Notes under the pieces: model-generated | What the model was told of the DNA's origin: nothing | Seen by the model: only the letters and a program-made list of their open reading frames with translations | Database searches by the model: none | Position numbers and translations under genes: made by a program | Part shown: positions 37 through 30,085 of the stretch, piece after piece | Position numbering within the stretch: the first letter of the stretch is position 1 | Layout: each line of letters begins with the position of its first letter | IMG/VR virus record: IMGVR_UViG_3300029318_000057 | Location: 1-31,522 of that record | From: a virus | Lineage: Duplodnaviria; Caudoviricetes | Strand: one strand, 5' to 3' | DNA: 31,522 bases

Positions 37-194
37 GTATAAAAAATTACACCCTATTTTTGTAGCATTTGATGCTGTAGCATTTTATACTGTATTATTT
101 TATACAGTATATTTTGATGCGTCTATGTGTATATGAATATACAGTGATATATGCTACCTAGAAAAGTTACATTTAATTTTGTATAAAAAATTAC
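37..194. promoter_or_regulatory. Array of NtcA-like boxes (GTA-N8-TAC) in AT-rich DNA
   Basis: Perfect GTA-N8-TAC starting at 37, 77, 92, 129 and 181. One-mismatch copies start at 62, 107 (GTA-N8-TGC) and 144 (GTG-N8-TAC). Confidence 0.6.
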
Positions 195-1180: not shown

Positions 1181-1593
1181 TCACTACAACCAAACTGACG
1201 AAAAAAGAATGTGACTTTTTTCTCAAAGGTGCTCGCCATGGCTTTAAAACCATCGCGTTGTCCCATGGTTTAAATCCATTGCAAATGTGGGACAAGACCA
1301 GTCAGGGGCTTCTCAAGGTGGGGATGCACCGTGATGACTTGGATGATGTTGAGTTGATGCTCTTTGGATGGAAGGATCTAACGGCTGAAATGCTGGAACG
1401 CTATAGGTGGCGTTATCCCGACCGCTGTCCATTACTGGACGTGCTCTGCACGTTTGATGATTCGTGCGAAGAATTAAACGAAGTCCAAGATTGGATGTTG
1501 GAACTCAAGGGCGCAAAAAACCGTCGTCGTCTGGACTTGCTGCCTGCGTTGCCAAAATACGACGGCTCAAGAAAATCTAATCAACAGTCATAA
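1177..1593 (+). CDS. Hypothetical protein, paralog of 575..1180
   Basis: 138 aa ORF translationally coupled to the upstream ORF; same shared motifs. Confidence 0.8.
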   Translation: MITTTKLTKKECDFFLKGARHGFKTIALSHGLNPLQMWDKTSQGLLKVGMHRDDLDDVELMLFGWKDLTAEMLERYRWRYPDRCPLLDVLCTFDDSCEELNEVQDWMLELKGAKNRRRLDLLPALPKYDGSRKSNQQS

Positions 1594-2075
1594 ATTTTGC
1601 ACTCCGGCTCACTGGGATATAAATCGCAGTAAGACTCAAAAAAGTTTGTTTTTTGCTTCTTAGGTTCCTTAAGTTCCCTAAGAGCTTCCTCGTTGAGTGT
1701 GCCTTCGCGCAGTGAGTTTTCCAAAGCAATCATTGCGTCCATATTGGAATTGTGCCTCATCCAACTGAAGAGGATTTCTTCACGACATTCGTCCCAGATC
1801 CTTAGTGGTCTCCACCACGGAAGAACGTCTCTGTTTGATTTAGAGCCGTTGCAATGTGTGCAGCATCGAGCCAGGTTCCACCTTCTAGTGGGACCGCCTT
1901 TACTCTTAGGGATTATGTGGTCGAGCGTCCAGGACGTAGCGGGTCTACCGCAGTACGCGCATCGATCACCGGGATAATCCTCGATAATCGCTTTTCTAAA
2001 CTTCTTTACTGCATATTTTGGCCTTATTTCTGAGAGGTTGAATAGCAAATCGTTGGGCGATTGTGCGATTCTCAT
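1581..2075 (-). CDS. HNH endonuclease
   Basis: CAYCG...TLDHIIPKSKGG...NLARCCTHCNGSK is the canonical zinc-binding HNH signature. Confidence 0.92.
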   Translation of the reverse strand: MRIAQSPNDLLFNLSEIRPKYAVKKFRKAIIEDYPGDRCAYCGRPATSWTLDHIIPKSKGGPTRRWNLARCCTHCNGSKSNRDVLPWWRPLRIWDECREEILFSWMRHNSNMDAMIALENSLREGTLNEEALRELKEPKKQKTNFFESYCDLYPSEPECKIYDC

Positions 2076-16107: not shown

Positions 16108-16386
16108 ATGACCAGGCAATACATCTCCAGTGCTCAGGCCTGCACCCTGTTAGGCGTCTCTGCTTCGACGCTAAAGCGGTGGCGGCACACGAACAAATTG
16201 ATGAAAGGGGTTCACTACACCCAGTACGGGCGGTGGACGATCCGTTACAACGTCAGCTGGCTTAAAAAGTTTCGAGAGTCAGGGGGCCGTGGTTCACACA
16301 AGATTGATGTCGCTAACTATTTGAACTCAATGAAGCGATCAGCTCCATGGCCAGCTTCTGCTTCTCGGCAGCAGATAGGTTCTTGA
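16108..16386 (+). CDS. Excisionase-like (MerR-type HTH) protein
   Basis: YISSAQACTLLGVSASTLKRWR...GVHY...IRYN; basic, 92 aa; convergent with the integrase. Confidence 0.8.
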   Translation: MTRQYISSAQACTLLGVSASTLKRWRHTNKLMKGVHYTQYGRWTIRYNVSWLKKFRESGGRGSHKIDVANYLNSMKRSAPWPASASRQQIGS

Positions 16387-17908
16387 CTAGATCTTGAACA
16401 CCGGTTACCTGCTTGACCTTGTCTTGTTGCGGAAAACTCAGAACACCTGAGTAGTGCTTACGCATTGTTGACTCGGTATCGCCAATCCAATAAGAAATCT
16501 GCCGTTGGCTGTACTCGCCAATCCGGCACATCATGCTCACATAGGTATGGCGCAGGTTGTACGGACGCCGGTAGCGGACACCTGCCTCAGCGCACGCTCG
16601 GATGAAGTAGCGGCGGAAGTTGTGCCAATCGAAAGGCAAGCGAAAATCATCTCCCGCACCAGGCCCTTGGAAAACAAGGCGCTTACGCCATTCCCAGTCC
16701 TTCATGCACTTTCTATGTGAAGGGAGAACTTGGAAGATCGCCTTTTCAAAAAGCTTCTCGAATCCAGGAACAAAGGTGTTTAGCTCTGGCTGATGCTCAC
16801 AACCGTTTTTTACCTTTTTGAATCTTTTTTCAGGATCGAGGTGGATTCGATTCGTCTTATCAACTGCCATTTCAAACAGAACTGGATCACCTGTCAGAAC
16901 AAAATCATCGGCGACTTCAACGTGATAGCCGAGCTGGTGTCCTTCCCAAAGTCCCAGCACATGATCCCAACGAAGAGCTAGCACCTCATTAGGTCTTGCA
17001 CCTGTGGCGAGCAAAATCGCAAACAACGGGAAGTAGGGCCTCAGATATTCGTTTCTAAGGAAAGCCTTGCATAAGGCTTCAGCCTCTGGTGGTGTGAATG
17101 GTTGAGGCCGAGCATTCTCATCACCGATCTTGCTTTCTTCAATAATTCGGTCGATCTCTTTTCTTTCGGTATTGATCGGGTTGCCTCGTCCCTTGGCATC
17201 AGTGACGCCCCAGTTGATTCCTCGCGTTACTCCAGAACTTTTGGGTTTCCTTGCACCACGACTAAGCGCCGTTGAAAGCAAAGCGTATGTCCCCCTAAGA
17301 GTGCTGTAAGCACGGTCAGCTGCAATCCAAGCAGCCGACATATTTTGAGCAACGTCTTCATCGAGATCCTCGCAAGCTATGTGACCAAAAGTCTCCCCAT
17401 TGGGGCCGGTCATTGCGAGCAGTTGGTAGGCGCTATCTCCGTAGTTGTCTTTCTGATTATCTGATCCAACTTTTTGCTGCATGTGCCATCGCAGCGCATG
17501 ACCAAGAGTGCCGAATGGATACGTCTTGGAAACTCTCGGACGATTGACGTGATCAGTCCGTAATTCTCCCATCCAATAGCCGTCACGCATCTCTTCGAGG
17601 ACGCCCTGGAAAAGCATGAACTTTTCGGGATATTGCTTCAAGAAAGACAGTGCATCCTCTTTGCTGGTGATGTCTCGCGGACAGTTGATTCCCAGACTGC
17701 GGGCGACAACCTTCCGATCGCGTGAGTAGTCCCGTGCGCGGATACGAAAGCCTCTGTTGTTGCTTTCAACCTCAATCGCTATCGAACGTTTGAAACCATT
17801 CCGAGTCGGTAGCTCGACCTTATGGATTGTGCCTGATGCAGGGGCCATTAGCTGTGTCCAGTTAGGTGCAATGACCTCCACTGATTTGACCTGATCCGAT
17901 AGCCCCAT
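16313..17908 (-). CDS. int: Tyrosine recombinase / integrase
   Basis: LLATGARPNEVLALRW (catalytic R), KKVKN (K), PYNLRHTYVS (R), MRKHY (catalytic Y); long N-terminal region. Confidence 0.93.
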   Translation of the reverse strand: MGLSDQVKSVEVIAPNWTQLMAPASGTIHKVELPTRNGFKRSIAIEVESNNRGFRIRARDYSRDRKVVARSLGINCPRDITSKEDALSFLKQYPEKFMLFQGVLEEMRDGYWMGELRTDHVNRPRVSKTYPFGTLGHALRWHMQQKVGSDNQKDNYGDSAYQLLAMTGPNGETFGHIACEDLDEDVAQNMSAAWIAADRAYSTLRGTYALLSTALSRGARKPKSSGVTRGINWGVTDAKGRGNPINTERKEIDRIIEESKIGDENARPQPFTPPEAEALCKAFLRNEYLRPYFPLFAILLATGARPNEVLALRWDHVLGLWEGHQLGYHVEVADDFVLTGDPVLFEMAVDKTNRIHLDPEKRFKKVKNGCEHQPELNTFVPGFEKLFEKAIFQVLPSHRKCMKDWEWRKRLVFQGPGAGDDFRLPFDWHNFRRYFIRACAEAGVRYRRPYNLRHTYVSMMCRIGEYSQRQISYWIGDTESTMRKHYSGVLSFPQQDKVKQVTGVQDLVKNLSAAEKQKLAMELIASLSSNS

Positions 17909-17986
17909 GACCCCGAAATCGAAGGAACGGGGGGCGGTAGTCAGCGGAGGAATTTGACTGGAGATGACCCGGTTTGACCGAATCTG

Positions 17987-18114
17987 TTCTACCAGTGAAA
18001 CCTTGAAAACCCTTGCAATGACTGGAATTTAGCGACTAGGCGCGTAAAATGCCATTAAACTGACAACCCAGTCAGGGCAACGGATCTCAGAGGCTTCTAC
18101 CAGTTTCTACCAGT
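17987..18114. mobile_element. Putative attP region with arm-type repeats
   Basis: TTCTACCAGT at 17987, 18095 and 18105 flanks an imperfect inverted 25-bp pair (18006-18030, 18063-18087); non-coding, upstream of int. Confidence 0.55.
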
Positions 18115-18207
18115 TGACACTTAAGGAGTCAAGTAACTGCAAACAACCCTGGCCCTGCTCCGGGGTGCCGTTGTATAGTCGCTCGGTGCTCACGGGCACA
18201 TCCATAT

Positions 18208-18280
18208 GGGGCCATAGCTCAGCTGGTAGAGCGCCTGCGTGGCACGCAGGAGGTCAGGAGTTCGAGCCTCCTTGGCTCCA
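18208..18280 (+). tRNA. tRNA-Ala(GGC)
   Basis: 73 nt; acceptor GGGGCCA/TGGCTCC with G3:U70; D arm GCTC/GAGC; anticodon stem CCTGC/GCAGG with GGC at 18241-18243; TTCGA T loop; CCA not encoded. TATAGT -10 candidate at 18174. Confidence 0.97.
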
Positions 18281-18283
18281 TTT

Positions 18284-18318
18284 GTATCGGTGCAAACAGT
18301 AGCGATTGCTACTAAACT
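18284..18318 (+). promoter_or_regulatory. NtcA box(es) abutting a -10 element
   Basis: Perfect GTAGCGATTGCTAC at 18299-18312; one-mismatch GTATCGGTGCAAAC at 18284-18297; TAAACT at 18313-18318. Confidence 0.7.
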
Positions 18319-18324
18319 GGGATT

Positions 18325-18378
18325 ACGTTGAGCCCCTCTAGGGCTGCACTGAATCCGACCAGGCAACGGGGGTCGGAC
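18325..18378 (+). ncRNA. Glutamine-II (Downstream-peptide) riboswitch
   Basis: P1 CGTTG(18326-30)/CAACG(18364-68); P2 AGCCC/GGGCT; pseudoknot TCCGACC(18354-60)/GGTCGGA(18371-77); precedes a YRGVxY peptide gene, as is typical for this class. Confidence 0.85.
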
Positions 18379-18392
18379 GCCATGGAGTCACC

Positions 18393-18521
18393 ATGAACGT
18401 GCTGGAAATCGTTCGGAACCGGACCAACAAGGAACAGGCCCTGAAAGCCGCTCAAAGGCAGCTCTGCTACCGCGGAGTGGTCTATGTCCAGAAGCCGTGT
18501 ACTTGCCGCCGTGAGAGCTGA
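18393..18521 (+). CDS. DUF4278-like small protein (42 aa, not in the ORF track)
   Basis: MNVLEIVRNRTNKEQALKAAQRQLCYRGVVYVQKPCTCRRES; LxYRGVxY motif; GGAG RBS at 18384. Confidence 0.85.
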   Translation: MNVLEIVRNRTNKEQALKAAQRQLCYRGVVYVQKPCTCRRES

Positions 18522-18580
18522 TTAAATCAGCACACGCTCACAGGAAAGACGGTTATATGGATTAGTCAAAAGTCGTTCAA

Positions 18581-18970
18581 ATGTTCAACACAGTTTCTGG
18601 GCGGGGTGATAACGCAGCTGTCGTAATCACCCCAAGCTCAGATCAACCAACAGTGTCGGCTACATATGACGCCACCTATGAATCTGAAGGCGGTGAACTA
18701 ACCCTTAATAAGGGAACAGTATCCGATCCAAGTCATTACAACAAAGGAGTAAGCCCATACGATGTTGCAAAAACAATGTATGGCGCTGAAGGTTTGCTTA
18801 AGTTTGTAACCGTAAACGCTGTAAAATATGTGAGTCGTTACCCCCACAAGTTCAGGGGAAATCCTAATAAGCAGCTTGATGATCTAGTAAAGGCCAAAAG
18901 AAGCCTTGAGACAGCGATTGAGCTACACAAAGAGATTTACGGCGATCAAAATACGCTGAGACATGGGTGA
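18581..18970 (+). CDS. DUF3310 (T7 gp1.7-like) domain protein
   Basis: VSDPSHY...F..VNAVKYVSRYPHK...DLVKA pattern. Confidence 0.75.
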   Translation: MFNTVSGRGDNAAVVITPSSDQPTVSATYDATYESEGGELTLNKGTVSDPSHYNKGVSPYDVAKTMYGAEGLLKFVTVNAVKYVSRYPHKFRGNPNKQLDDLVKAKRSLETAIELHKEIYGDQNTLRHG

Positions 18971-19160
18971 TTCAAAAGTAAAATATCTGCGCTTTCGTTA
19001 CACAGGAAGCTTGGATGATCTGAATTCGATTAAAGATCGAATCGAAGAAATCATGAAAGATGAAGGTTGGAAAAGGGGCTTTTCTGAAATGGCCCCTTTA
19101 GAATCCAATCAAAATATTTATGCTTGGGCGACCGGTTGGAAGAGGTATTTAGAGCCTTAA
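18963..19160 (+). CDS. Hypothetical protein
   Basis: 65 aa, overlaps the upstream stop. Confidence 0.7.
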   Translation: MGDSKVKYLRFRYTGSLDDLNSIKDRIEEIMKDEGWKRGFSEMAPLESNQNIYAWATGWKRYLEP

Positions 19161-19255
19161 TCGTCCAACATCAAGATCTCTACAACGATGATATAGGTCA
19201 CAAATATCATCAGAACCAAGATCATAAAAGCGATGTCATATGGAAAGCCATTCAT
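19157..19255 (-). CDS. Small single-pass membrane peptide (32 aa, not in the ORF track)
   Basis: MNGFPYDIAFMILVLMIFVTYIIVVEILMLDD; ATGA coupling with the upstream gene. Confidence 0.6.
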   Translation of the reverse strand: MNGFPYDIAFMILVLMIFVTYIIVVEILMLDD

Positions 19256-19389
19256 CGTTTGCCTTGTCCTCTATAGGGCTTTTTGTGTGGTGAACGTTTG
19301 GTTCTTCCGGTGGTTGTACGAACTCTTCGACCGTCACCAATCTTCGTTCGCTTAGGTTTTCCGGCAAATAAATTTGTTGAATAAAGCAT
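19252..19389 (-). CDS. Small very basic phage protein ending YRGQGKR (45 aa, not in the ORF track)
   Basis: MLYSTNLFAGKPKRTKIGDGRRVRTTTGRTKRSPHKKPYRGQGKR; starts 2 nt after the endolysin stop. Confidence 0.75.
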   Translation of the reverse strand: MLYSTNLFAGKPKRTKIGDGRRVRTTTGRTKRSPHKKPYRGQGKR

Positions 19390-19391
19390 AT

Positions 19392-20120
19392 TTAAACCAT
19401 GTATTTACGGCACTTGTCGTAAGCATCAAGGCGTTCGGCGTAATGATTCCATCCACCGTTGATGCGGTAACAACATGCGTCGATACCATCATTAAGACAC
19501 ACATTCAGCAAGTCGTTCTGCTGAATCCACGCGATTGCGCTTGAAAAAGGATACTTGACAGAAACGTAGTCAGCGCCCTCAGCAACAATCCGAGGGTCGT
19601 CAATGCCTTCGTTTTTCAACAACCACTGCTGAAAATTAATGTAATTATATTTACCTGTAAGTTGGATGACACCAGCCCCTTTCCACTTTTCTCCCTCGTT
19701 TGGGCCGTGGTTAAGGTCACTTCGACCGCGTAAATATAGTCCGTCGGACAACTCTTTTAACCAACGAAACCCCCCAGTTTCAATAATGAGGTTCGCCATC
19801 AACATTCGAGAAGGCTCAAGATGATCCGAAAAATTTGTCGCTTCAAACAGATAACTGCAGTCGTGACAGAACTCAACGCTAAATTTCCGCGCCGGACGGC
19901 CCGTAAGCTTCTCGAAAAGAAACGGGGTGAACTTCAACCCCACGTTTACATTCTTTTTTGACCTATACAAACGAGCCCATGCCGCGTAATCGCTCATGGT
20001 GTCAGGATCCAGCGACTCAACCTCCTCCTGCAAAAGATCTACGGCATCAACATGCAGGGGGTTTTCAGGGTCGTAATACTTGAAAAAATCTCGCAGCTTA
20101 TGCGGATCAAATCTACTCAT
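19392..20120 (-). CDS. Glycoside hydrolase family 19 endolysin
   Basis: ETGGF..LKE, KWKGAGVIQLTGKYNY, INGGWNHYAER. ATG 20120 (MSRFD) avoids a long overlap with 20113..20325. Confidence 0.88.
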   Translation of the reverse strand: MSRFDPHKLRDFFKYYDPENPLHVDAVDLLQEEVESLDPDTMSDYAAWARLYRSKKNVNVGLKFTPFLFEKLTGRPARKFSVEFCHDCSYLFEATNFSDHLEPSRMLMANLIIETGGFRWLKELSDGLYLRGRSDLNHGPNEGEKWKGAGVIQLTGKYNYINFQQWLLKNEGIDDPRIVAEGADYVSVKYPFSSAIAWIQQNDLLNVCLNDGIDACCYRINGGWNHYAERLDAYDKCRKYMV

Positions 20121-22984: not shown

Positions 22985-24994
22985 TTAAGCGATTGCTAGG
23001 AATAAGAAAGTTTTACCAGATCCGTTTAGTAAATTAGATCCGGCAGTAGTCTTAACTGTGAAACCAGTGCTGTAAGGATCAACGTAATCAGTAGACCCTT
23101 GAGGGTCCGTGGTATTAAACCTCCTATAGTTGTCATTTCCCCCAGCTGAAATACCTTGAGCAGTATCAAAGAAGAACCAATCGCCATCGGCATCAATTCT
23201 TTTTATTAATATGAAACGTGCTCCAGAAGTGAAACCACAGTCAACGTTTACATCATAAGAAGAACCTGAAAATGTTCCAACCTTACTGATACCACTTAAG
23301 CTAGCAAACATGTATGCGAGGAATTTTTCACCCTGAGTATTAGTGTCCCCATTTGTCACGGTTGCGGTCTGGAAAGTAGTGGAAGTATGAGTTCCAAATA
23401 GCGTGTCAGAGTAGGCCGCATTGTTTGTATCTGGATTGAGTTTGATAACCATTCCAGATGCCCCATAATATACATACCAATCACCAGTATCGGAATACTT
23501 TTTAACAATTAAAAGCTCAGGATTTGCATTAAGTTTGTGCGGTATATTTCTATTTGCTAAACCATCACCAGTAAAAGTTACAATGTCGAAGAAGCCAGGT
23601 GCTCTTCTAAAATGAAGTGCTGAATAAGGCTGATTACTATAATTAGTGACTCCATAGCCATCATTCCCGTACGTTACACCGTTGGAGTTAAAAGCTCGAA
23701 ACAGGGCATCAGGAACGTTAGTTGCTTGAGATGCGCTGTTACCAGCGACTAGCCTTGAATCAGGCAGTCTAAGTTTGTCAAAGACGACTGTTCCGTTACC
23801 GCCAAAATTATTAATCTCAGTATTAATTAAAAGATCTGGCGCAAACGGAACATTGGTTGTTTTAAACACAGAACCTGTGCCAGTAAATGTCTTCGGTTCA
23901 AAAACCTCAGTACCGGCTGTGGGTGGTTTATGTGTTCTGGCAATCGCCATATAAATGTATTCACCGCCAGAAACGTTTCCAAAAACGCCATTAGTTCTTA
24001 GTTTGAATCCAGAGTGAGTAAAATTCAAACCAATATTATTGTCCCTAGTTTCACTATTAGTCTCGTCAAAAGCTAATGTTCTCGTATCATCAATAATATT
24101 GAAACCTGTTCCTCTAAGACTATCCATAACCATCCAACTTCCACCATATGCACCCCCAGAGCGAGTGGCACACCTCACCATCACAAATTGCGGCTCAAAC
24201 CCTAGATTAATTTCAGGACCATCAGAACTACCGTTACCTGTGTAGGAACCGCATTTGATAACGCCTTCATTTAATTGCTCGCCAAACCCCGAATCTCCGT
24301 GACCAAAAATATAGGCTACAAATCTATGGCCATTGTGGTTAGTTAAACTTCCAGACCCCACAGTAAAATGAGTGGCCGTAGGTTCAGTATCGTTCCAAGA
24401 CCCCGAATCTGTCTCGACAACATCAGTGCTTTGTAAGTGCAGGTGCTTGGTTGCGCCTGTAGATCGGTGGTAAACCGCCCACTCATGACCTGTACTGTCT
24501 AAACACTTAATCCATATCATCCCTGGCGAAATGCCAAGAGAATGAGCAATATTCCTGGCATTACCGTTACCTGTATATGTAACTACATCGAAAAATTTAG
24601 GGGCTTTTTTAAACGACCAAGTCATGTACTCATTTTGTGAGTAATTATTGGCATTTTCACCTGTATAGTTCAATCCCAGAGTAAAACCATCTGAGTTAAA
24701 CGAAGCAACTCCATAACCAGATGGAAATGATTGCTCTTGATTAGTCGTATTGAGACTTAGATATTTACTACTACCTCTCTCGGTATCAACAGCAATCCAT
24801 GGCAGGTTTCCATTTCTATGCTTAAAAATTACAAGCCCACCATCACCAGCAAAATCAATACCATTACTTACACCAGAAACAGCATCATTACCTGTACGGT
24901 CATAAAGTTTGAAAAGATCATCGATATAAACTGGATCTCCTAAAGCAGCGCCACCAGCAGCCGCTAGAACAAGCTTTGAAGTATTAATATCCAT
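22985..24994 (-). CDS. Large tail-fibre/virion protein, cassette copy 3 (669 aa)
   Basis: Paralog of 25576..27552 and 28130..30085; internal duplication (FFDVVTYTG / FFDIVTFTG; YMAI / FLAIA). ATG 24994 matches the paralogs' MD start. Confidence 0.8.
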   Translation of the reverse strand: MDINTSKLVLAAAGGAALGDPVYIDDLFKLYDRTGNDAVSGVSNGIDFAGDGGLVIFKHRNGNLPWIAVDTERGSSKYLSLNTTNQEQSFPSGYGVASFNSDGFTLGLNYTGENANNYSQNEYMTWSFKKAPKFFDVVTYTGNGNARNIAHSLGISPGMIWIKCLDSTGHEWAVYHRSTGATKHLHLQSTDVVETDSGSWNDTEPTATHFTVGSGSLTNHNGHRFVAYIFGHGDSGFGEQLNEGVIKCGSYTGNGSSDGPEINLGFEPQFVMVRCATRSGGAYGGSWMVMDSLRGTGFNIIDDTRTLAFDETNSETRDNNIGLNFTHSGFKLRTNGVFGNVSGGEYIYMAIARTHKPPTAGTEVFEPKTFTGTGSVFKTTNVPFAPDLLINTEINNFGGNGTVVFDKLRLPDSRLVAGNSASQATNVPDALFRAFNSNGVTYGNDGYGVTNYSNQPYSALHFRRAPGFFDIVTFTGDGLANRNIPHKLNANPELLIVKKYSDTGDWYVYYGASGMVIKLNPDTNNAAYSDTLFGTHTSTTFQTATVTNGDTNTQGEKFLAYMFASLSGISKVGTFSGSSYDVNVDCGFTSGARFILIKRIDADGDWFFFDTAQGISAGGNDNYRRFNTTDPQGSTDYVDPYSTGFTVKTTAGSNLLNGSGKTFLFLAIA

Positions 24995-25002
24995 TAGACG
25001 CC

Positions 25003-25488
25003 TCAGTTCACATAATCGACAAGCGCAGCACCGCGCCAACGAACGCCACCGTCATCAGTTACAAAAACAAAGACGTGAGTTCGACCAGATGTCAGTGTTG
25101 GCGGCGTATCAGCAGGCCACTTGATTGAAGCTGGCCATGTAAGAGTGCCGGATGTGTGGGTAATTTCCAAGGCGAATGTGAAGGCCACAGAAGCCGGTAC
25201 ATTTGAAATTGTGAACGTAGTATTCCCGTTGCACGTCTTGGTAAAGTAATTCCCATCACGGCAATCAATGTCATACCCGGAAAGGGCGATGGCATTAGAA
25301 ACAACATTGCCTAAGCAAGCCAAGCCATTGGCATTTACTTCGATAATGTTTGCGCCGCCAGACACAAAACGGCTGGAAGTCGAATCGAAATAAAGACCGC
25401 TAGTACCTTGAGTTCCCTTGATAGCCGGAGAAGTGGCGGAACCATCAATACCGGAAATACCTGTATCCCCGTCAAGACTTAGTGCCAT
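25003..25488 (-). CDS. Small tail-fibre protein, cassette copy 3
   Basis: GISGIDGSATSPA, DIDC..GNYFTKT and TWPASIKWP..T.PTLT motifs shared with the two paralogs. Confidence 0.8.
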   Translation of the reverse strand: MALSLDGDTGISGIDGSATSPAIKGTQGTSGLYFDSTSSRFVSGGANIIEVNANGLACLGNVVSNAIALSGYDIDCRDGNYFTKTCNGNTTFTISNVPASVAFTFALEITHTSGTLTWPASIKWPADTPPTLTSGRTHVFVFVTDDGGVRWRGAALVDYVN

Positions 25489-25566
25489 AATAAAAAATTA
25501 AAAAGGGTTAAAGGCGTTAGTTATATTGCCTTGAATGCAATACTTTCCTCAGAATAATTATACTGG
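25489..25566 (-). repeat. Conserved inter-cassette spacer, copy A (78 bp)
   Basis: Identical to 28042-28120 except for one missing base; TATAAT on the minus strand; TATTGC/GCAATA hairpin. Confidence 0.95.
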
Positions 25567-25575
25567 CTTCTGTGA

Positions 25576-27552
25576 TTAAGCGATTGCAAGGAAGATGTAC
25601 GAGTAACCTGAAGCGTTAAGAGCGGGAGGGCCGGATGAAGTCACTCTGAAGCCTGAGTTGATTGGGTCGATGTAATCATTGCTTGTAACCTCTCCAGTTG
25701 ATTCGTTGGTAAATATCCAAGGTTCATTACCGCTATTAATCCCTCTTGCGCTATCCCACACAAACCACCCCGTGGCAATCGAGGGGTTGAATATATACTC
25801 AACGCACTTGATTAAGACAAATCTGGCACCTGCGGTAAAACCACAATCAACATCAATATCGTAACCAGTGCCGTTGTAACTGCCTACTTTACTGATACCA
25901 GGCAAAGTGGCAAATAAATAGTTGATATAAGACCTGCCAGAAGCATTGGTGTCATCGTAATTGCCAACGGTGAAACCTGATGCTGTGGGTGCAGTATTGT
26001 TCCAAAAAAGGCTAGAAGTAATTGCTTCTGAAGTGGTATTTAGTGTAAAGGCTTTAGTTGGACCGGTTGGTGCCGCGTACACGGCCCAATCTTCATCGTT
26101 GGTCGTACACTTGACCAACATTAATTCAGGAACAACACCAAGTCCATGCTGATGAGGTGTGGTTGAACCTGTACCATCGTAGGGAACTATGTCGAAGAAA
26201 CCTGGAGCACGTTTAAAATTCCAACTAAAATAGTTTTTACCGTTTACACTTCTATAAGTTTGCATTTCCAGTCCAGTCGATAAATCAAACTGAACACCAG
26301 CAGCGCCGACATTAGTACTTTTGGTAATTCCTTTTCCATAAAACTCTTGACCGCTACCACGTACCCTGTCAGTTATGGCTAGATAATCACCAGGAATATC
26401 GCGTGCGTTAGAGAAACTTAAATCAACAGGAAATCCAGTTGATGTTGTTACCCTGCTACCTGTGCCTGCCCAAAGAGAAGTATTAAAGACTTCCGTCCCA
26501 TTTGTCGGTGGTTTATGCGGACGGCGGATAGCCATATACACAACAGTTTCTTGAGCGTTGTACCAATTAATTTCACCACCTATAGCAGTAAAACCGGTTG
26601 AGGTAAGATTTAAAAAATTACCATTACCTAGGCCAGCTTCATTATAATTATTATTTGAATACAGAGGTAGATCATTACCAGGAGTAATACCTCGCATCGT
26701 GTCAAAAAGGTGCCAGTCCCTATTTGCTGCAGTGCTTTTTATTAATAGGAATTGTGGCTCAAACCCTAGATCAACGGTTACTGGACTTCCATTGCCAGTT
26801 GTTGTATAACTTCCACATTTAATAATGCTTTCATCCTGATTAGTGCCGAACCTTGCGTCATCGTTAGCGAAAACATAAGCAACAAAAGACGTACCATTTG
26901 TATTTGCATCGCCTTGGACAGTAAATAAGCTGTCTGTAAAAAGTGATGATTGATTTAATGCATTACTAAAACGACCATAGTAATTGAAATCAGTGTCTGA
27001 ATTTAATAACCCGGCTTTATGTTCGATTCCATCGTAACCCCCACTTGTGTGCCAAACATTCCAGTGATCCGTGCTAAGACTCTTTACTATCACCATGCCC
27101 GGTGTAGAGCCAAGAGAGTGACTAATTTGCTGGCTATTATTTGAATCACCTGTATAAGTAACTACATCAAAAAATCCCGGCGCTTTACGGAATGTCCAGC
27201 TTACAATCTTTGTATTTGCAGCGTTTTCGCCAACCCAATTAGTGCCTAGCGTAAATCCACTAGAAGTGAAAGATTGCACGTGATTAGAAGAAGTATTGCG
27301 TTCCGCTCTCGTTGAATTGGAACCAATCTCTTTTCCCGCTCCTCTTTCGGTGTCTACCAAGGAATGATCACTTACATTGTCTCGATTTTTAAACCAAACT
27401 AGACCACCTTCACCGGCTAAATCAATTCCATTACTAATTGTTTGAGCTGAACCCGTGCCCTCATACAAATAATTACTAAAAACATCGTCAACGTACAGAG
27501 GATCGTCCTTTTTGGAACCTGAAAGCAAGACTTTTAGTGATGTAGGATCCAT
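25576..27552 (-). CDS. Large tail-fibre/virion protein, cassette copy 2
   Basis: 658 aa; YVDDVFS, GIDLAGEGGLVW, LGFEPQ, VDCGFT.GAR, FLAIA. Confidence 0.8.
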   Translation of the reverse strand: MDPTSLKVLLSGSKKDDPLYVDDVFSNYLYEGTGSAQTISNGIDLAGEGGLVWFKNRDNVSDHSLVDTERGAGKEIGSNSTRAERNTSSNHVQSFTSSGFTLGTNWVGENAANTKIVSWTFRKAPGFFDVVTYTGDSNNSQQISHSLGSTPGMVIVKSLSTDHWNVWHTSGGYDGIEHKAGLLNSDTDFNYYGRFSNALNQSSLFTDSLFTVQGDANTNGTSFVAYVFANDDARFGTNQDESIIKCGSYTTTGNGSPVTVDLGFEPQFLLIKSTAANRDWHLFDTMRGITPGNDLPLYSNNNYNEAGLGNGNFLNLTSTGFTAIGGEINWYNAQETVVYMAIRRPHKPPTNGTEVFNTSLWAGTGSRVTTSTGFPVDLSFSNARDIPGDYLAITDRVRGSGQEFYGKGITKSTNVGAAGVQFDLSTGLEMQTYRSVNGKNYFSWNFKRAPGFFDIVPYDGTGSTTPHQHGLGVVPELMLVKCTTNDEDWAVYAAPTGPTKAFTLNTTSEAITSSLFWNNTAPTASGFTVGNYDDTNASGRSYINYLFATLPGISKVGSYNGTGYDIDVDCGFTAGARFVLIKCVEYIFNPSIATGWFVWDSARGINSGNEPWIFTNESTGEVTSNDYIDPINSGFRVTSSGPPALNASGYSYIFLAIA

Positions 27553-27555
27553 TTT

Positions 27556-28041
27556 TCAATTATCAAAGTCAGCAACAGCGTTAGTTCTGAAGGTGGCCCC
27601 GTTGTCGTCAGAAACTAGAACGAACAGATGAGTTTTGCCCGCCGTTAAAGTAGGTGCAGTAGCGGCAGGGAACTTGACAGAAGCGGGCCAGGTAACAGTG
27701 CCGCTTGTGTGCGTTAATTCAAGTACAAAAGCAAAGGCACGCGATGAAGGAACGTTGGAGATAGTAAAGGTAGTATTTCCGTTAATCGTCTTTGTAAAAT
27801 AATTTCCGGCTGAACAATCAATGTCGTCGGCAGCCATCGCCACCACATTGGTGACAAAGTTGCCATTAAGATCTAGTCCGTTTGCACCAACAACAACTCG
27901 CTCATTACCGCCTGCAGCGATTGAAGCGGCATTATTGCCAAAGAAAATGCCCGTATCGGTGTCTGTTCCTTTAACAGCAGGAGCAGTGGCTGATCCATCA
28001 ACACCAGAAATGCCCGTAGACCCATGAATCCTTAGTGTCAT
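27556..28041 (-). CDS. Small tail-fibre protein, cassette copy 2
   Basis: 161 aa paralog of 25003..25488 and 30088..30624. Confidence 0.8.
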   Translation of the reverse strand: MTLRIHGSTGISGVDGSATAPAVKGTDTDTGIFFGNNAASIAAGGNERVVVGANGLDLNGNFVTNVVAMAADDIDCSAGNYFTKTINGNTTFTISNVPSSRAFAFVLELTHTSGTVTWPASVKFPAATAPTLTAGKTHLFVLVSDDNGATFRTNAVADFDN

Positions 28042-28120
28042 AATAAAAAATTAAAAGAGGGTTAAAGGCGTTAGTTATATTGCCTTGAATGCAATACTTT
28101 CCTCAGAATAATTATACTGG
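28042..28120 (-). repeat. Conserved inter-cassette spacer, copy B (79 bp)
   Basis: Matches 25489-25566 with one extra G. Confidence 0.95.
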
Positions 28121-28129
28121 TTTCAAGGA

Positions 28130-30085
28130 TTAAGCGATTGCAAGAAATAGGTAAGTATCGCCTGTCTGATTCAGTTGAGCAGGTGCTGATGAAGTGACTG
28201 TGAATCCTGAGCTAAGTGGATCAATATAATCATGATTTGTAAATGAATTAGACGTTGTATTTATAAGTAAATACGGATCATTGCCGGACGTAATGCCTCT
28301 AACAGTATCCCAGTTATACCAATCTCCTGAACCATCAAGACGTTTAATAAGGACATACCTTGCGCCAGATGTAAATCCACAATCAACGTTTACATCAGAA
28401 TAAGAACCGGTGTATGTACCTACTTTACTGATCCCAGGCAGGGTTGCGAATGAATATCCAATATAGTTTTTCTGATTTCGATTCACCTCCCATTCATTAC
28501 CTAGTTGAATAGTAGTAGCCGTAGGCGCTGATAGGAAATAATTAGAGCTTCCGTAACTTTGGGTACTGTGAGTACTTGATTGAAGCACTGTGCGGGAATG
28601 ATTTGAGTTAGTAAAATTAGAATATACTCCCCAACTACTACTACCATCTCTTTGCCGAATTATTAGTAGTTCAGGAGGCACTGTTAGATTATGAGCCAAG
28701 TTCTGACTGCTACCATTTCCCTGATAGGCAAACATATCAAAAAAACCTGGAGCACGTTTAAACATAGACAGAACATACTGTCTAGGGTAACTATAATTCT
28801 GCTGGTTAATGTTTTCGTAATCATCCATGTATAAGTAATTATTTCCCATTTCAAGAAGCCCATCGGACCTATTATCTTCATTAGAACTATCGGTCAATCT
28901 TAGACTCCTCTTAGGCCCTCGGAGCCTATCCATAACGTAATTATCGCGGCTACTCGTTAGTATTAGTGAAAATATAAGATCTACGGTAATGCTTGTAGAT
29001 CTGGTAGTAAGATTGCCATTACCCTGATAGGTTATGGTTTCAAATACATCCGTACCAGCTTCAGGCGGTTTATTAGGACGCCGGATTGCCATGTAGACGT
29101 AAGTTGCATTCCAGCTGTGCCCAGCATCAAGGATAAATCCACTAGAAGATGGTTTATTTCCATTATTTGCTGCTTCTGAAGAAGTAGAATTTGCAAATAG
29201 TTCTATGGCTCCACTTGTATTAACAGTCCAACCACGCATTACATCTAATATTTGCCAGCTTTCGCTACCGCCGTTAGATCGTTTATAAATCAACCATTGG
29301 GGTTCAAATCCAAGGTCTACAGATGCTTGACCAGATCCATTAGTCGTAAAACTGCCACATTTAACAATCGCTTCATCCCCATCAGTGCCAAACTGAGCGT
29401 CGTCGTGAGCAAATATGTAAGCGACGTAAGTATCACCGTTAGCGTTGGTTTTTCCTGATGTACCTACTGTAAACGCAGTAGATGTGGCTGCTGTGTTGTT
29501 CCATTCAGTTGCACTAACATCCTCAGGACTGTTGAGGTTGAGGTATAAACTTTTTGTTCCACCTAAGCTGCGATGTTGAACAGTCCAATTATCACTACCA
29601 TTCATCCTTTTGACAATCACCATACCCGGTGTACTACCAAGAGCATGAGGAATTTGTCTGCCATTCACACCATTTCCCGTATAAGTAACTACATCAAAAA
29701 ATCCACGAGCCTTTCTGAAGGACCAAGACACATATCTTCCAAAACCGTTTTGATTTAAATCACCATCACCAGCGGGGACAGTAAAACCATTACTGTTGAA
29801 AGTTAAGGTGCCGCTAGTCCCCATCGTTTGTTCTGCATCAGTGTAGGGCAGCCTAAGTCTCTTATTTAAATTTCGCTCACTATCATATAACGAATGTACT
29901 CGCCCATTGTCTCTATTTTTAATCCAAACCAAGCCACCGTCACCAGCCAGATCAATTCCATTAATTAATTGCTGCGTGTACTGAATGCCGTTATACAGAT
30001 AGGTGCTAAAAACATCGTCAACGTAAACAGGGTCACCTTGTAACGGCGACGACGTAAGGAATAAATTTCTAGTTGTTAGATCCAT
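28130..30085 (-). CDS. Large tail-fibre/virion protein, cassette copy 1
   Basis: 651 aa; same motifs as copies 2 and 3. Confidence 0.8.
   Translation of the reverse strand: MDLTTRNLFLTSSPLQGDPVYVDDVFSTYLYNGIQYTQQLINGIDLAGDGGLVWIKNRDNGRVHSLYDSERNLNKRLRLPYTDAEQTMGTSGTLTFNSNGFTVPAGDGDLNQNGFGRYVSWSFRKARGFFDVVTYTGNGVNGRQIPHALGSTPGMVIVKRMNGSDNWTVQHRSLGGTKSLYLNLNSPEDVSATEWNNTAATSTAFTVGTSGKTNANGDTYVAYIFAHDDAQFGTDGDEAIVKCGSFTTNGSGQASVDLGFEPQWLIYKRSNGGSESWQILDVMRGWTVNTSGAIELFANSTSSEAANNGNKPSSSGFILDAGHSWNATYVYMAIRRPNKPPEAGTDVFETITYQGNGNLTTRSTSITVDLIFSLILTSSRDNYVMDRLRGPKRSLRLTDSSNEDNRSDGLLEMGNNYLYMDDYENINQQNYSYPRQYVLSMFKRAPGFFDMFAYQGNGSSQNLAHNLTVPPELLIIRQRDGSSSWGVYSNFTNSNHSRTVLQSSTHSTQSYGSSNYFLSAPTATTIQLGNEWEVNRNQKNYIGYSFATLPGISKVGTYTGSYSDVNVDCGFTSGARYVLIKRLDGSGDWYNWDTVRGITSGNDPYLLINTTSNSFTNHDYIDPLSSGFTVTSSAPAQLNQTGDTYLFLAIA

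Follow-up and report, generated by a model that had tools for sequence, protein, structure and literature searches.

A phage-borne variant of a host NtcA box, glutamine riboswitch and DUF4278-like peptide unit, predicted to be nitrogen-gated, in an uncultured marine cyanophage

The host unit and its phage-borne variant

A unit made of an NtcA box, a type-2 glutamine riboswitch and a DUF4278-like peptide has been published for the cyanobacterial host (Klähn 2018). According to the accessible text of PMC6212724, the unit of Prochlorococcus MED4 is overlapped by an NtcA site and ammonium induces its reporter, and glutamine turned translation on when its leader was assayed in a Synechocystis reporter; NtcA sites that overlap the polymerase footprint have been linked to repression (PMC6212724, PMC8092223). 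The available parts of two papers (PMC6212724, PMC6316151) further describe DUF4278 as the N-terminal part of IF17, a part that is dispensable for inhibition and promotes stability, and describe marine proteins that lack the binding C-terminus; in the text accessible to us, no function has been published for a stand-alone DUF4278 protein. On the phage side, NtcA boxes have been predicted in T4-like cyanophages (PMC3037559, as available), and the accessible part of a 2017 census counts no more than two glutamine aptamers among phage genomes and judges riboswitches to be rare in phages (PMC5473149). In the open-access literature, as far as its available text goes, we found no description of a phage version of the unit, nor a statement that glutamine riboswitches and DUF4278 genes are paired in phages.

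The window analysed here, an entire virus record of 31,522 bases, carries genes for a family A polymerase, a primase-helicase, a class II ribonucleotide reductase, ThyX, an HNH-CP12 fusion, an excisionase-like protein, an integrase, an endolysin and tail proteins. Judged from these sequences, it is an uncultured marine cyanophage whose host is probably a Synechococcus or Cyanobium, because its ribonucleotide reductase has Synechococcus phage S-CBP2 as its top cultured match (60%), its polymerase and primase have no close cultured counterpart, and its tRNA-Ala(GGC) is close in sequence to a Synechococcus gene. In particular, no close cultured relative was found among 50,697 phage records (best identities: DNA polymerase 29%, ribonucleotide reductase 60%, primase 29%); against the same records, the cassette DNA had no match and the peptide had chance matches only (E ≥ 2). 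Elsewhere in the window, the HNH endonuclease (1581-2075, minus strand) has a CP12 domain fused at its C-terminus, both domains scoring above the Pfam cut-off, and the minus strand from 22985 to 30085 holds three tail-type paralogs of 650-680 aa, each with a 160-180-aa companion gene; the first of the three matches DUF7483.

Next to the integration module lies a cassette of promoter boxes, riboswitch and peptide gene (Table 1), which is a phage variant of the known host unit, real and conserved, and not a new kind of system; what is new is its phage context, the unit itself being published for the host. We read the cassette as an AND gate through which the peptide would be made only in nitrogen-rich cells, where it would likely act on host nitrogen assimilation, and as the likely product of a single capture from Synechococcus or Cyanobium; we assign this combined reading a probability of about 0.5. 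The cassette is not an assembly artefact, because one assembly, possibly the window's own source, covers the stretch in one piece, and because positions 18252-19400 were found again in two other runs with 0-1 differences.

Table 1. Coordinates of the cassette, its neighbours and the palindrome array in the window.
Feature	Position	Strand	Remarks
Palindrome array GTA-N8-TAC	37..194	.	five perfect boxes and three with one mismatch; real
Excisionase-like HTH gene	16108..16386	+	Pfam HTH_17 above cut-off; phrog_66 excisionase, E 5e-6
Tyrosine integrase, 531 aa	16313..17908	-	phrog_1 integrase, E 1.5e-21; transcribed away from the cassette
Three exact TTCTACCAGT repeats (17987, 18095, 18105)	17987..18114	.	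possible arm-type integrase sites
tRNA-Ala(GGC), full-length	18208..18280	+	between integrase and cassette; missed by the first-pass annotation
Box A, GTA-N5-GCAAAC (GTA-N8-AAC)	18284..18297	+	imperfect; possible second NtcA site over the -35 region
Box B, GTA-N8-TAC, GTAGCGATTGCTAC	18299..18312	+	perfect palindromic NtcA-type site in a repressing position
-10 element, TAAACT	18313..18318	+	directly 3′ of Box B
Glutamine-II (Downstream-peptide) aptamer	18323..18378	+	RF01704; covariation; ligand-contact bases
Candidate expression platform	18381..18400	+	CAUGG/CCAUG hairpin over GGAG and AUG, from predicted folds
Peptide gene, 42 aa, basic	18393..18521	+	one YRG-x-x-Y motif; like DUF4278 and the IF17 N-terminus; PHROG 545
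DUF3310 gene (PHROG: nucleotide kinase)	18581..18970	+	59 nt past the peptide gene; possibly co-transcribed
First terminator-like site downstream of cassette	19261..19279	+	consensus scan only

Anatomy of the cassette

The first-pass annotation had opened the unit at position 18284 with a perfect NtcA box abutting a TAAACT -10 element. The perfect box and its abutment are present, as Box B; position 18284 itself belongs to Box A, an imperfect second box. Box B is the best NtcA-type site in the window (22.5 bits versus 10.8 bits for the next; host median 22.3) on a matrix built from 45 distinct host boxes, a matrix biased toward riboswitch-linked boxes because all 45 source boxes are riboswitch-linked. 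A perfect box arises in the 50-base interval concerned in 2.6% of shuffles, a modest result; the stronger evidence is the matrix score together with the occurrence of the identical 14-mer ahead of a host paralog (locus L278). Transcription probably starts near 18325; relative to this putative start, Box B lies at about -20, and both boxes overlap the polymerase footprint rather than sitting at -41.5. A sigma-70 scan did not report the TAAACT promoter of the cassette. Box A, a possible second NtcA site, fits a relaxed NtcA rule, GT-N10-AC, but scores -5.1 bits on the host-box matrix; it occurs once in the window and once in each of the parts examined of two further genomes (G066 and G068), and its spacing is constant at 15 nt ahead of the -10 element.

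Across 24 related loci, described below, a TAnnnT element stands 7-9 nt ahead of the aptamer in every case (24/24); a perfect box is found in 14, Box A in 17, at least one of the two in 19 and neither in 5. NtcA control is thus not essential to the cassette, because the perfect box is absent from 10 of the 24 loci and both boxes from 5. For comparison, a perfect box lies within 60 nt in 29 of the 30 top host riboswitch loci and, among the loci listed, in 4 of 82 distinct viral riboswitch loci outside the lineage.

The palindrome array near the start of the window, which the first-pass annotation had taken together with the cassette as a sign that the phage reads nitrogen at two levels, is real (five perfect boxes against a shuffle mean of 0.10; 0 of 5000 shuffles). 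Its role as NtcA sites fares poorly: the boxes score from -6 to 10.8 bits on the host-box matrix, and no such cluster was found in the relatives examined, namely over 58 of the 63 kb of G066 and, in G067, over the 2.6 kb that precede the homologous ORF. The array is no less likely to be a phage operator or an origin, and we do not count it as part of the cassette. It is AT-rich and partly in a 15-base register, about six 19-base tandem repeats follow it (222-396), and the two stretches together resemble an operator array or a replication origin.

Scanned with Rfam, the window contains two RNAs, the tRNA and the Glutamine-II aptamer. The latter, for which the first-pass annotation had proposed a search with the Downstream-peptide model, matches RF01704 over the full model length at 45.2 bits, above the gathering score of 33 (E 4e-8). 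Its stems are P1 (18332-18344) and P2 (18354-18360 with 18371-18377), both as previously claimed; the claimed 7-bp pseudoknot shrinks to five Watson-Crick pairs, between CGUUG at 18326-18330 and CAACG at 18364-18368, and the long-range C19:G41 pair; a seventh layer is reached only by including the A33:G42 pair seen in the crystal structure. With positions numbered after that structure in the available text of PMC6698751 (C1 = 18326), C1, G2, U3, U4, G18, C19, G35, A37, A38, C39, G40, G41 and A33:G42 are all intact. By the same mapping, the ligand contacts C1, G18, C39 and G40 fall at 18326, 18346, 18367 and 18368, and the triple-forming G2 and G35 at 18327 and 18363; the 5:36 pair, which is variable, is G:C in the window and C:G in the crystal.

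The stems are supported by 18 lineage sequences, where 95% of cells are paired, compared with 32-55% in a control with the partners slid; both-sided changes occur in 6 of 17 pairs, with covariation in P1 and P2, and the shuffle counts of this test are not probabilities because the 18 sequences are related. The pseudoknot pairs and C19:G41 are invariant (18/18), invariance by itself being no proof of pairing. By minimum energy, shuffled sequences fold as well as the aptamer (z from -1.15 to 0.35), as expected for a pseudoknot, and this folding is not counted as evidence. The aptamer lies in the 5′ leader of a short ORF, whose ATG is 15 nt past P2 with GGAG in between. From this sequence evidence, the element is predicted to be a glutamine-responsive riboswitch.

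Behind the GGAG (18384-18387), the 42-codon ORF with its YRGVVY motif, claimed in the first-pass annotation, evolves under purifying selection (pN/pS of 0-0.55 in 11 of 11 pairs of relatives, some sharing a member), and we take it to be a real gene because of this selection. The DUF4278 label given in the first-pass annotation is weak for this peptide: the match to PF14105 is 15.6 bits, below the cut-off of 25.3, with E 0.022 and coverage of profile positions 37-57 only, and 26 of 35 aligned relatives match DUF4278 at E ≤ 0.1, weakly, the best at 3.9e-6. By sequence the peptide is therefore best called DUF4278-like, and we do not file it as a family member. It matches PHROG 545 over residues 1-34 (E 2.9e-7), and M-N-x-L and YRG-x-x-Y are invariant and common to the lineage peptides and host paralogs. 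In Pfam and NCBIfam, DUF4278 is the sole family matched, with no sign of the C-terminal glutamine synthetase-binding region of IF17/IF7; the peptide is not an IF17, because it lacks the C-terminal region reported to be necessary for glutamine synthetase binding. The peptide profile had no match in the PDB, and the best ESM Atlas score, 0.84, is a lead only. The extra CTC pair near the peptide's end is present and is not family-wide: a CTC/CSC tail was rejected as a family feature, occurring in 3 of 24 lineage peptides. A four-codon upstream ORF (18382-18396), whose stop overlaps the peptide's start codon, is seemingly not conserved in relatives.

Lineage, integration module and wider occurrence

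Relatives were found through the peptide alignment, the riboswitch pattern and the neighbouring DUF3310 gene, giving 24 distinct lineage loci including the window, several of them near-identical strains; duplicate contigs (L001/L116/L124/L323, L106, L078, L025, L034, L094, L134 and L329) are outside the 24. Where sequenced, the gene order is reductase, integration module, cassette, DUF3310, endolysin and tail genes. The DUF3310 search is independent of the cassette, and the peptide was present in 8/8 of the non-self loci it found, once as a 3′ end at a contig edge; the aptamer motif was present in 7/7 with enough sequence, five above the Rfam cut-off. An Rfam scan of 20 loci placed 17 above the cut-off and one motif below it and showed two to be unrelated; two tblastn matches (L137 and L138) proved to be longer, unrelated ORFs and were set aside, as was L077, a pattern match due to chance. 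Ahead of the DUF3310 start, the lineage shares a conserved motif of the form GGTTAYAT/GGTACAT ... TTCAAATG (18549-18583), and a hairpin comes after it within the DUF3310 5′ end; the motif is possibly a separate promoter or RNA element.

The cassette stands ahead of DUF3310 in all 24 loci, and the adjacent integrase/tRNA module is swapped. In L002 and L003, an integrase 80% identical to that of the window is accompanied by tRNA-Ala and the TTCTACCAGT repeats, and the cassette is absent. These two observations indicate that the cassette travels with the phage backbone and not with the integrase. The window tRNA differs from a Synechococcus gene at 5 of 73 positions and shares with the host tRNA a longest exact run of 25 nt, at its 5′ end; it is possibly an attachment site or a replacement tRNA. 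Full diverged tRNA-Ala in the same orientation occurs at five loci including the window, four of which have the window-type long integrase, the fifth (L123) being cut short. In eight other relatives, 43-55 nt exactly identical to the 3′ part of host tRNA-Ala run the other way round, and such an identical stretch is what an attachment site usually looks like. Several of these relatives have the tRNA piece beside an ORF of about 390 aa, a putative recombinase judging only by catalytic-type motifs seen by eye and by its position. These ORFs match no integrase profile and gave no phmmer match to the long integrase. In the window (18171-18280) and in L002, L003, L123, L126, L130 and L324, the full, diverged tRNA-Ala(GGC) comes with a TTGTATA -10-like element of its own and with a leader hairpin that is conserved; the changes in the window tRNA include a compensatory anticodon-stem pair, and the short-recombinase relatives have the host-identical 3′ piece only, in opposite orientation.

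A search for an attachment site with positions 17880-18210 gave weak matches only, in five host genomes (best E 0.05), and a 20-nt palindrome near 18115 was rejected as the core, occurring in 1 of 151 genomes with two mismatches. Among 251 host genomes, a search at 1e-15 found neither a homolog of the 531-aa integrase nor a prophage of that type; the ~390-aa type has distant homologs only (27-40% identity), in 41 of the 251. No host-phage junction was seen in four runs. In L009, L010 and L070, the 455-aa ORF next to the riboswitch is a terminase and not an integrase.

An unrooted tree of 54 aptamer-plus-downstream sequences (188 columns) places 20 lineage rows on one side of a branch with support of 86/85, below the starred level, and joins the lineage at 97/95 to eight host G5-type MNVL/MNTL paralogs and five other viral rows. 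In all eight of these host paralogs, a perfect box lies 34-37 bases upstream. The sequences fit a single capture of the cassette from a host, a direction that can only be surmised because the tree is unrooted.

Beyond the lineage, a pattern scan of viral contigs lists at least 119 viral riboswitch loci, with about 150 estimated and some possibly host DNA. Most of those listed have a YRG peptide behind the riboswitch, which bears out the first-pass statement that these riboswitches precede DUF4278-type genes in phages; 11 of 92 distinct viral loci among those listed lie directly behind psbA. Of the 61 host genomes sampled, 40 have the riboswitch. RF01704 also scores above its cut-off, unannotated, in three cultured cyanophages, each time ahead of a YRG peptide: at 1202-1255 in P-SSP7 (L348), at 1203-1256 in S-TIP37 (L349) and at 1241-1297 in S-CBS4 (L350). 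The peptide of P-SSP7 is an unannotated 17-codon ORF, and those of S-TIP37 and S-CBS4 are gp32 and gp007. Six loci (L009, L024, L029, L031, L032 and L050) form an S-CBS4-like lineage in which the riboswitch lies 19-20 bases past a tRNA-Leu(TAA) near terminase, with no NtcA box, a second case of a tRNA followed by a Glutamine-II riboswitch. Two further loci of the viral collection (L086 and L119) have two perfect NtcA boxes and host-like multi-repeat peptides and are possibly host DNA. The scale of occurrence, with three cultured model cyanophages included, stands in contrast to the 2017 census.

Predicted regulation, function and comparison with known systems

By analogy with the host system, the cassette would work at two levels. 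Under low nitrogen, 2-oxoglutarate would rise and NtcA would be bound over the promoter spacer, blocking transcription; in nitrogen excess, NtcA would leave the promoter and glutamine would stabilise the pseudoknot, raising translation. That NtcA represses in limitation and glutamine switches the RNA on in excess is, on this analogy, highly probable, and nitrogen gating as such is likely. The two-level nitrogen sensing of the first-pass annotation is well supported by the anatomy, the conservation and the host counterpart in the accessible text of PMC6212724, and has the standing of a prediction.

As to how the RNA would act, AACGU of codons 2-3 is complementary to the aptamer's 5′ ACGUU, with a pairing probability of 0.92 in the predicted folds of the window. 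Without ligand, ACGUU would pair with AACGU and lengthen the hairpin over the ribosome-binding site; formation of the pseudoknot would take the ACGUU strand away. Codons 2 and 3 are AAC GTG in 18/18 members, with codon 4 using five synonyms, an invariance that is partly built in because 5 of the 18 start codons were located by the same motif. The predicted OFF pairing exceeds a probability of 0.5 in only 6 of 18 members, and locking the pseudoknot raises the mean predicted accessibility of the initiation region from 0.37 to 0.41, a small gain. We therefore put forward this model of an OFF pairing relieved by the pseudoknot tentatively, as somewhat less probable than its converse.

The peptide may act like the IF17-like peptides of the host and dampen a protein of nitrogen assimilation at times of nitrogen abundance. 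ATP and carbon would thereby be saved for making phage or, where the phage is integrated, for its host; we consider the chances of this action to be evenly balanced. Host nitrogen assimilation is favoured as the target on two grounds: gifA, gifB and pirA, which are under like control, work in that process, and the riboswitch-peptide core is met again in unrelated cyanophages, often behind psbA, a pattern that suits an auxiliary gene directed at the host. One candidate target is glutamine synthetase. The more specific proposal of the first-pass annotation, that the peptide modulates glutamine synthetase, is weak: its inhibition is doubtful because DUF4278 corresponds to the dispensable end of IF17, and the marine proteins are without the binding C-terminus.

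Among the alternatives, the peptide could be a stability or decoy module on the proteolysis machinery or on a basic-peptide-binding partner outside nitrogen assimilation, altering turnover in nitrogen-rich cells. The homologous IF17 region is reported, in the text available, to promote stability and not inhibition, and host members consist of tandem YRG repeats, of which P-SSP7 keeps a 17-aa single-repeat form; together, the repeats and the P-SSP7 form suggest a short linear docking motif. However, double nitrogen gating is common to gifA, gifB and pirA, and in the accessible reports each of these has its effect on nitrogen metabolism; we regard this alternative as doubtful.

Alternatively, the NtcA promoter could serve mainly the downstream genes, nucleotide-kinase-like DUF3310 and one of 65 aa, and so link the supply of nucleotides to nitrogen; the peptide would then be a leader with a role in translational coupling or in transcript protection. 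Peptide and DUF3310 genes are adjacent across the lineage, 59 nt apart in the window; the consensus scan found no plus-strand terminator-like site between the peptide gene and 19261; and PHROG labels the DUF3310 protein a nucleotide kinase. This arrangement is unlikely in view of the purifying selection on the peptide sequence, whose M-N-x-L and YRG-x-x-Y motifs are shared with host paralogs, the hairpin and U-tract just 3′ of the gene in several relatives, the separate conserved motif ahead of DUF3310, and the other phages that have riboswitch and peptide without an adjacent DUF3310.

A third alternative, in line with the lysis-lysogeny role suggested in the first-pass annotation, keeps the nitrogen gating and lets the peptide influence whether the phage itself integrates or lyses, for instance through binding to integrase, excisionase or a repressor. 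The cassette does adjoin the integration module in the lineage loci sequenced on that side, and at least one promoter box is found in 19 of 24 lineage loci, against no perfect box in 78 of 82 other viral loci listed. Yet the cassette faces and is transcribed away from the integrase, from which it would be separated if crossover falls between them; it persists on replacement of the integrase, beside two integrase types without a phmmer match to each other; it is absent from two phages (L002 and L003) that have the tRNA and an 80% identical integrase; and no prophage of the long-integrase type was found in the 251 host genomes. The core is also present in T7-like phages that have been called essentially lytic, including S-TIP37, for which the available text of PMC8776855 reports integration and not lysogeny, and no effect of nutrient depletion on progeny; according to the same text, an integrase is no proof of lysogeny in such hosts. 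Apart from its position, nothing found ties the peptide to integration; a role in lysis or lysogeny is unsupported, and we consider this alternative quite unlikely. Equally improbable is its broader form, in which the Glutamine-II riboswitch and YRG peptide are an overlooked pan-cyanophage module, shared by T7-like phages, S-CBS4-like phages and the window's lineage, that keeps the NtcA operator only with an integrase, because the peptide informs the choice to integrate or lyse or maintains integration; if true, a metabolite-sensing RNA would gate the choice of phage life cycle.

That the cassette is a functionless passenger from imprecise excision at host tRNA-Ala, as its start 4 nt past the tRNA 3′ end, just where similarity to L002 and L003 stops, might suggest, is highly improbable and largely refuted by conservation, since no riboswitch motif turned up within about 1.5 kb of four host tRNA-Ala(GGC) genes or in three host fragments, tRNA-Ala(GGC) is nearby in 1 of 154 pattern- or Rfam-derived genome loci (about 1.2 kb off, with a different subtype), and the cassette's position is kept despite an inverted tRNA piece, with covariation and selection.

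The occurrence of the element in cultured cyanophages makes two questions testable, namely the role of the marine picocyanobacterial DUF4278/IF17-like peptides and whether host nitrogen status is read by cyanophages during infection. The NtcA-gated form in the lineage and the box-less form elsewhere constitute a natural experiment, and S-TIP37 is open to genetic engineering according to the available text of PMC8776855.

Of the known systems, the closest in the accessible text (PMC6212724, PMC6316151) is Yfr6/WP_071812974 of Prochlorococcus MED4, which has like parts in like order and the same predicted ON-in-excess logic. In contrast to it, the cassette in the window is phage-borne and of the G5:C36 subtype, like the Synechococcus/Cyanobium MNVL/MNTL paralog; its peptide is cut to the N-terminal segment and one YRG repeat; and its box is ahead of the -10 element, not over the start site, with a second conserved box upstream. 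Synechocystis gifB (IF17), which is preceded by a type-1 glnA riboswitch (RF01739), combines NtcA repression with glutamine ON as predicted for the window; its aptamer class is different, and the window peptide is weakly like the N-terminal DUF4278 region of IF17. PirA (Ssr0692) of Synechocystis is likewise a small basic protein, with two NtcA boxes in repressing positions and expression in nitrogen excess; it binds PII and is reported, in the part of PMC8092223 available, to be absent from marine picocyanobacteria.

Among phages, glutamine riboswitches have been reported as two cyanophage aptamers (PMC5473149), in Melnitz, Mosig and AG-345-P14 (PMC9004378) and in T4-like cyanophages (PMC9964418); these are few, are glnA-like or of unstated class, and in the accessible text of these reports come without a linked NtcA box, DUF4278-like peptide or integration module. 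P-SSP7, S-TIP37 and S-CBS4 are like the window in having RF01704 directly ahead of a YRG peptide, and unlike it in their C5:G36 subtype, in having no GTA-N8-TAC box within 60 nt, and in the site of the riboswitch, which is behind psbA in S-TIP37, one gene past psbA in P-SSP7, and behind a tRNA near terL in S-CBS4.
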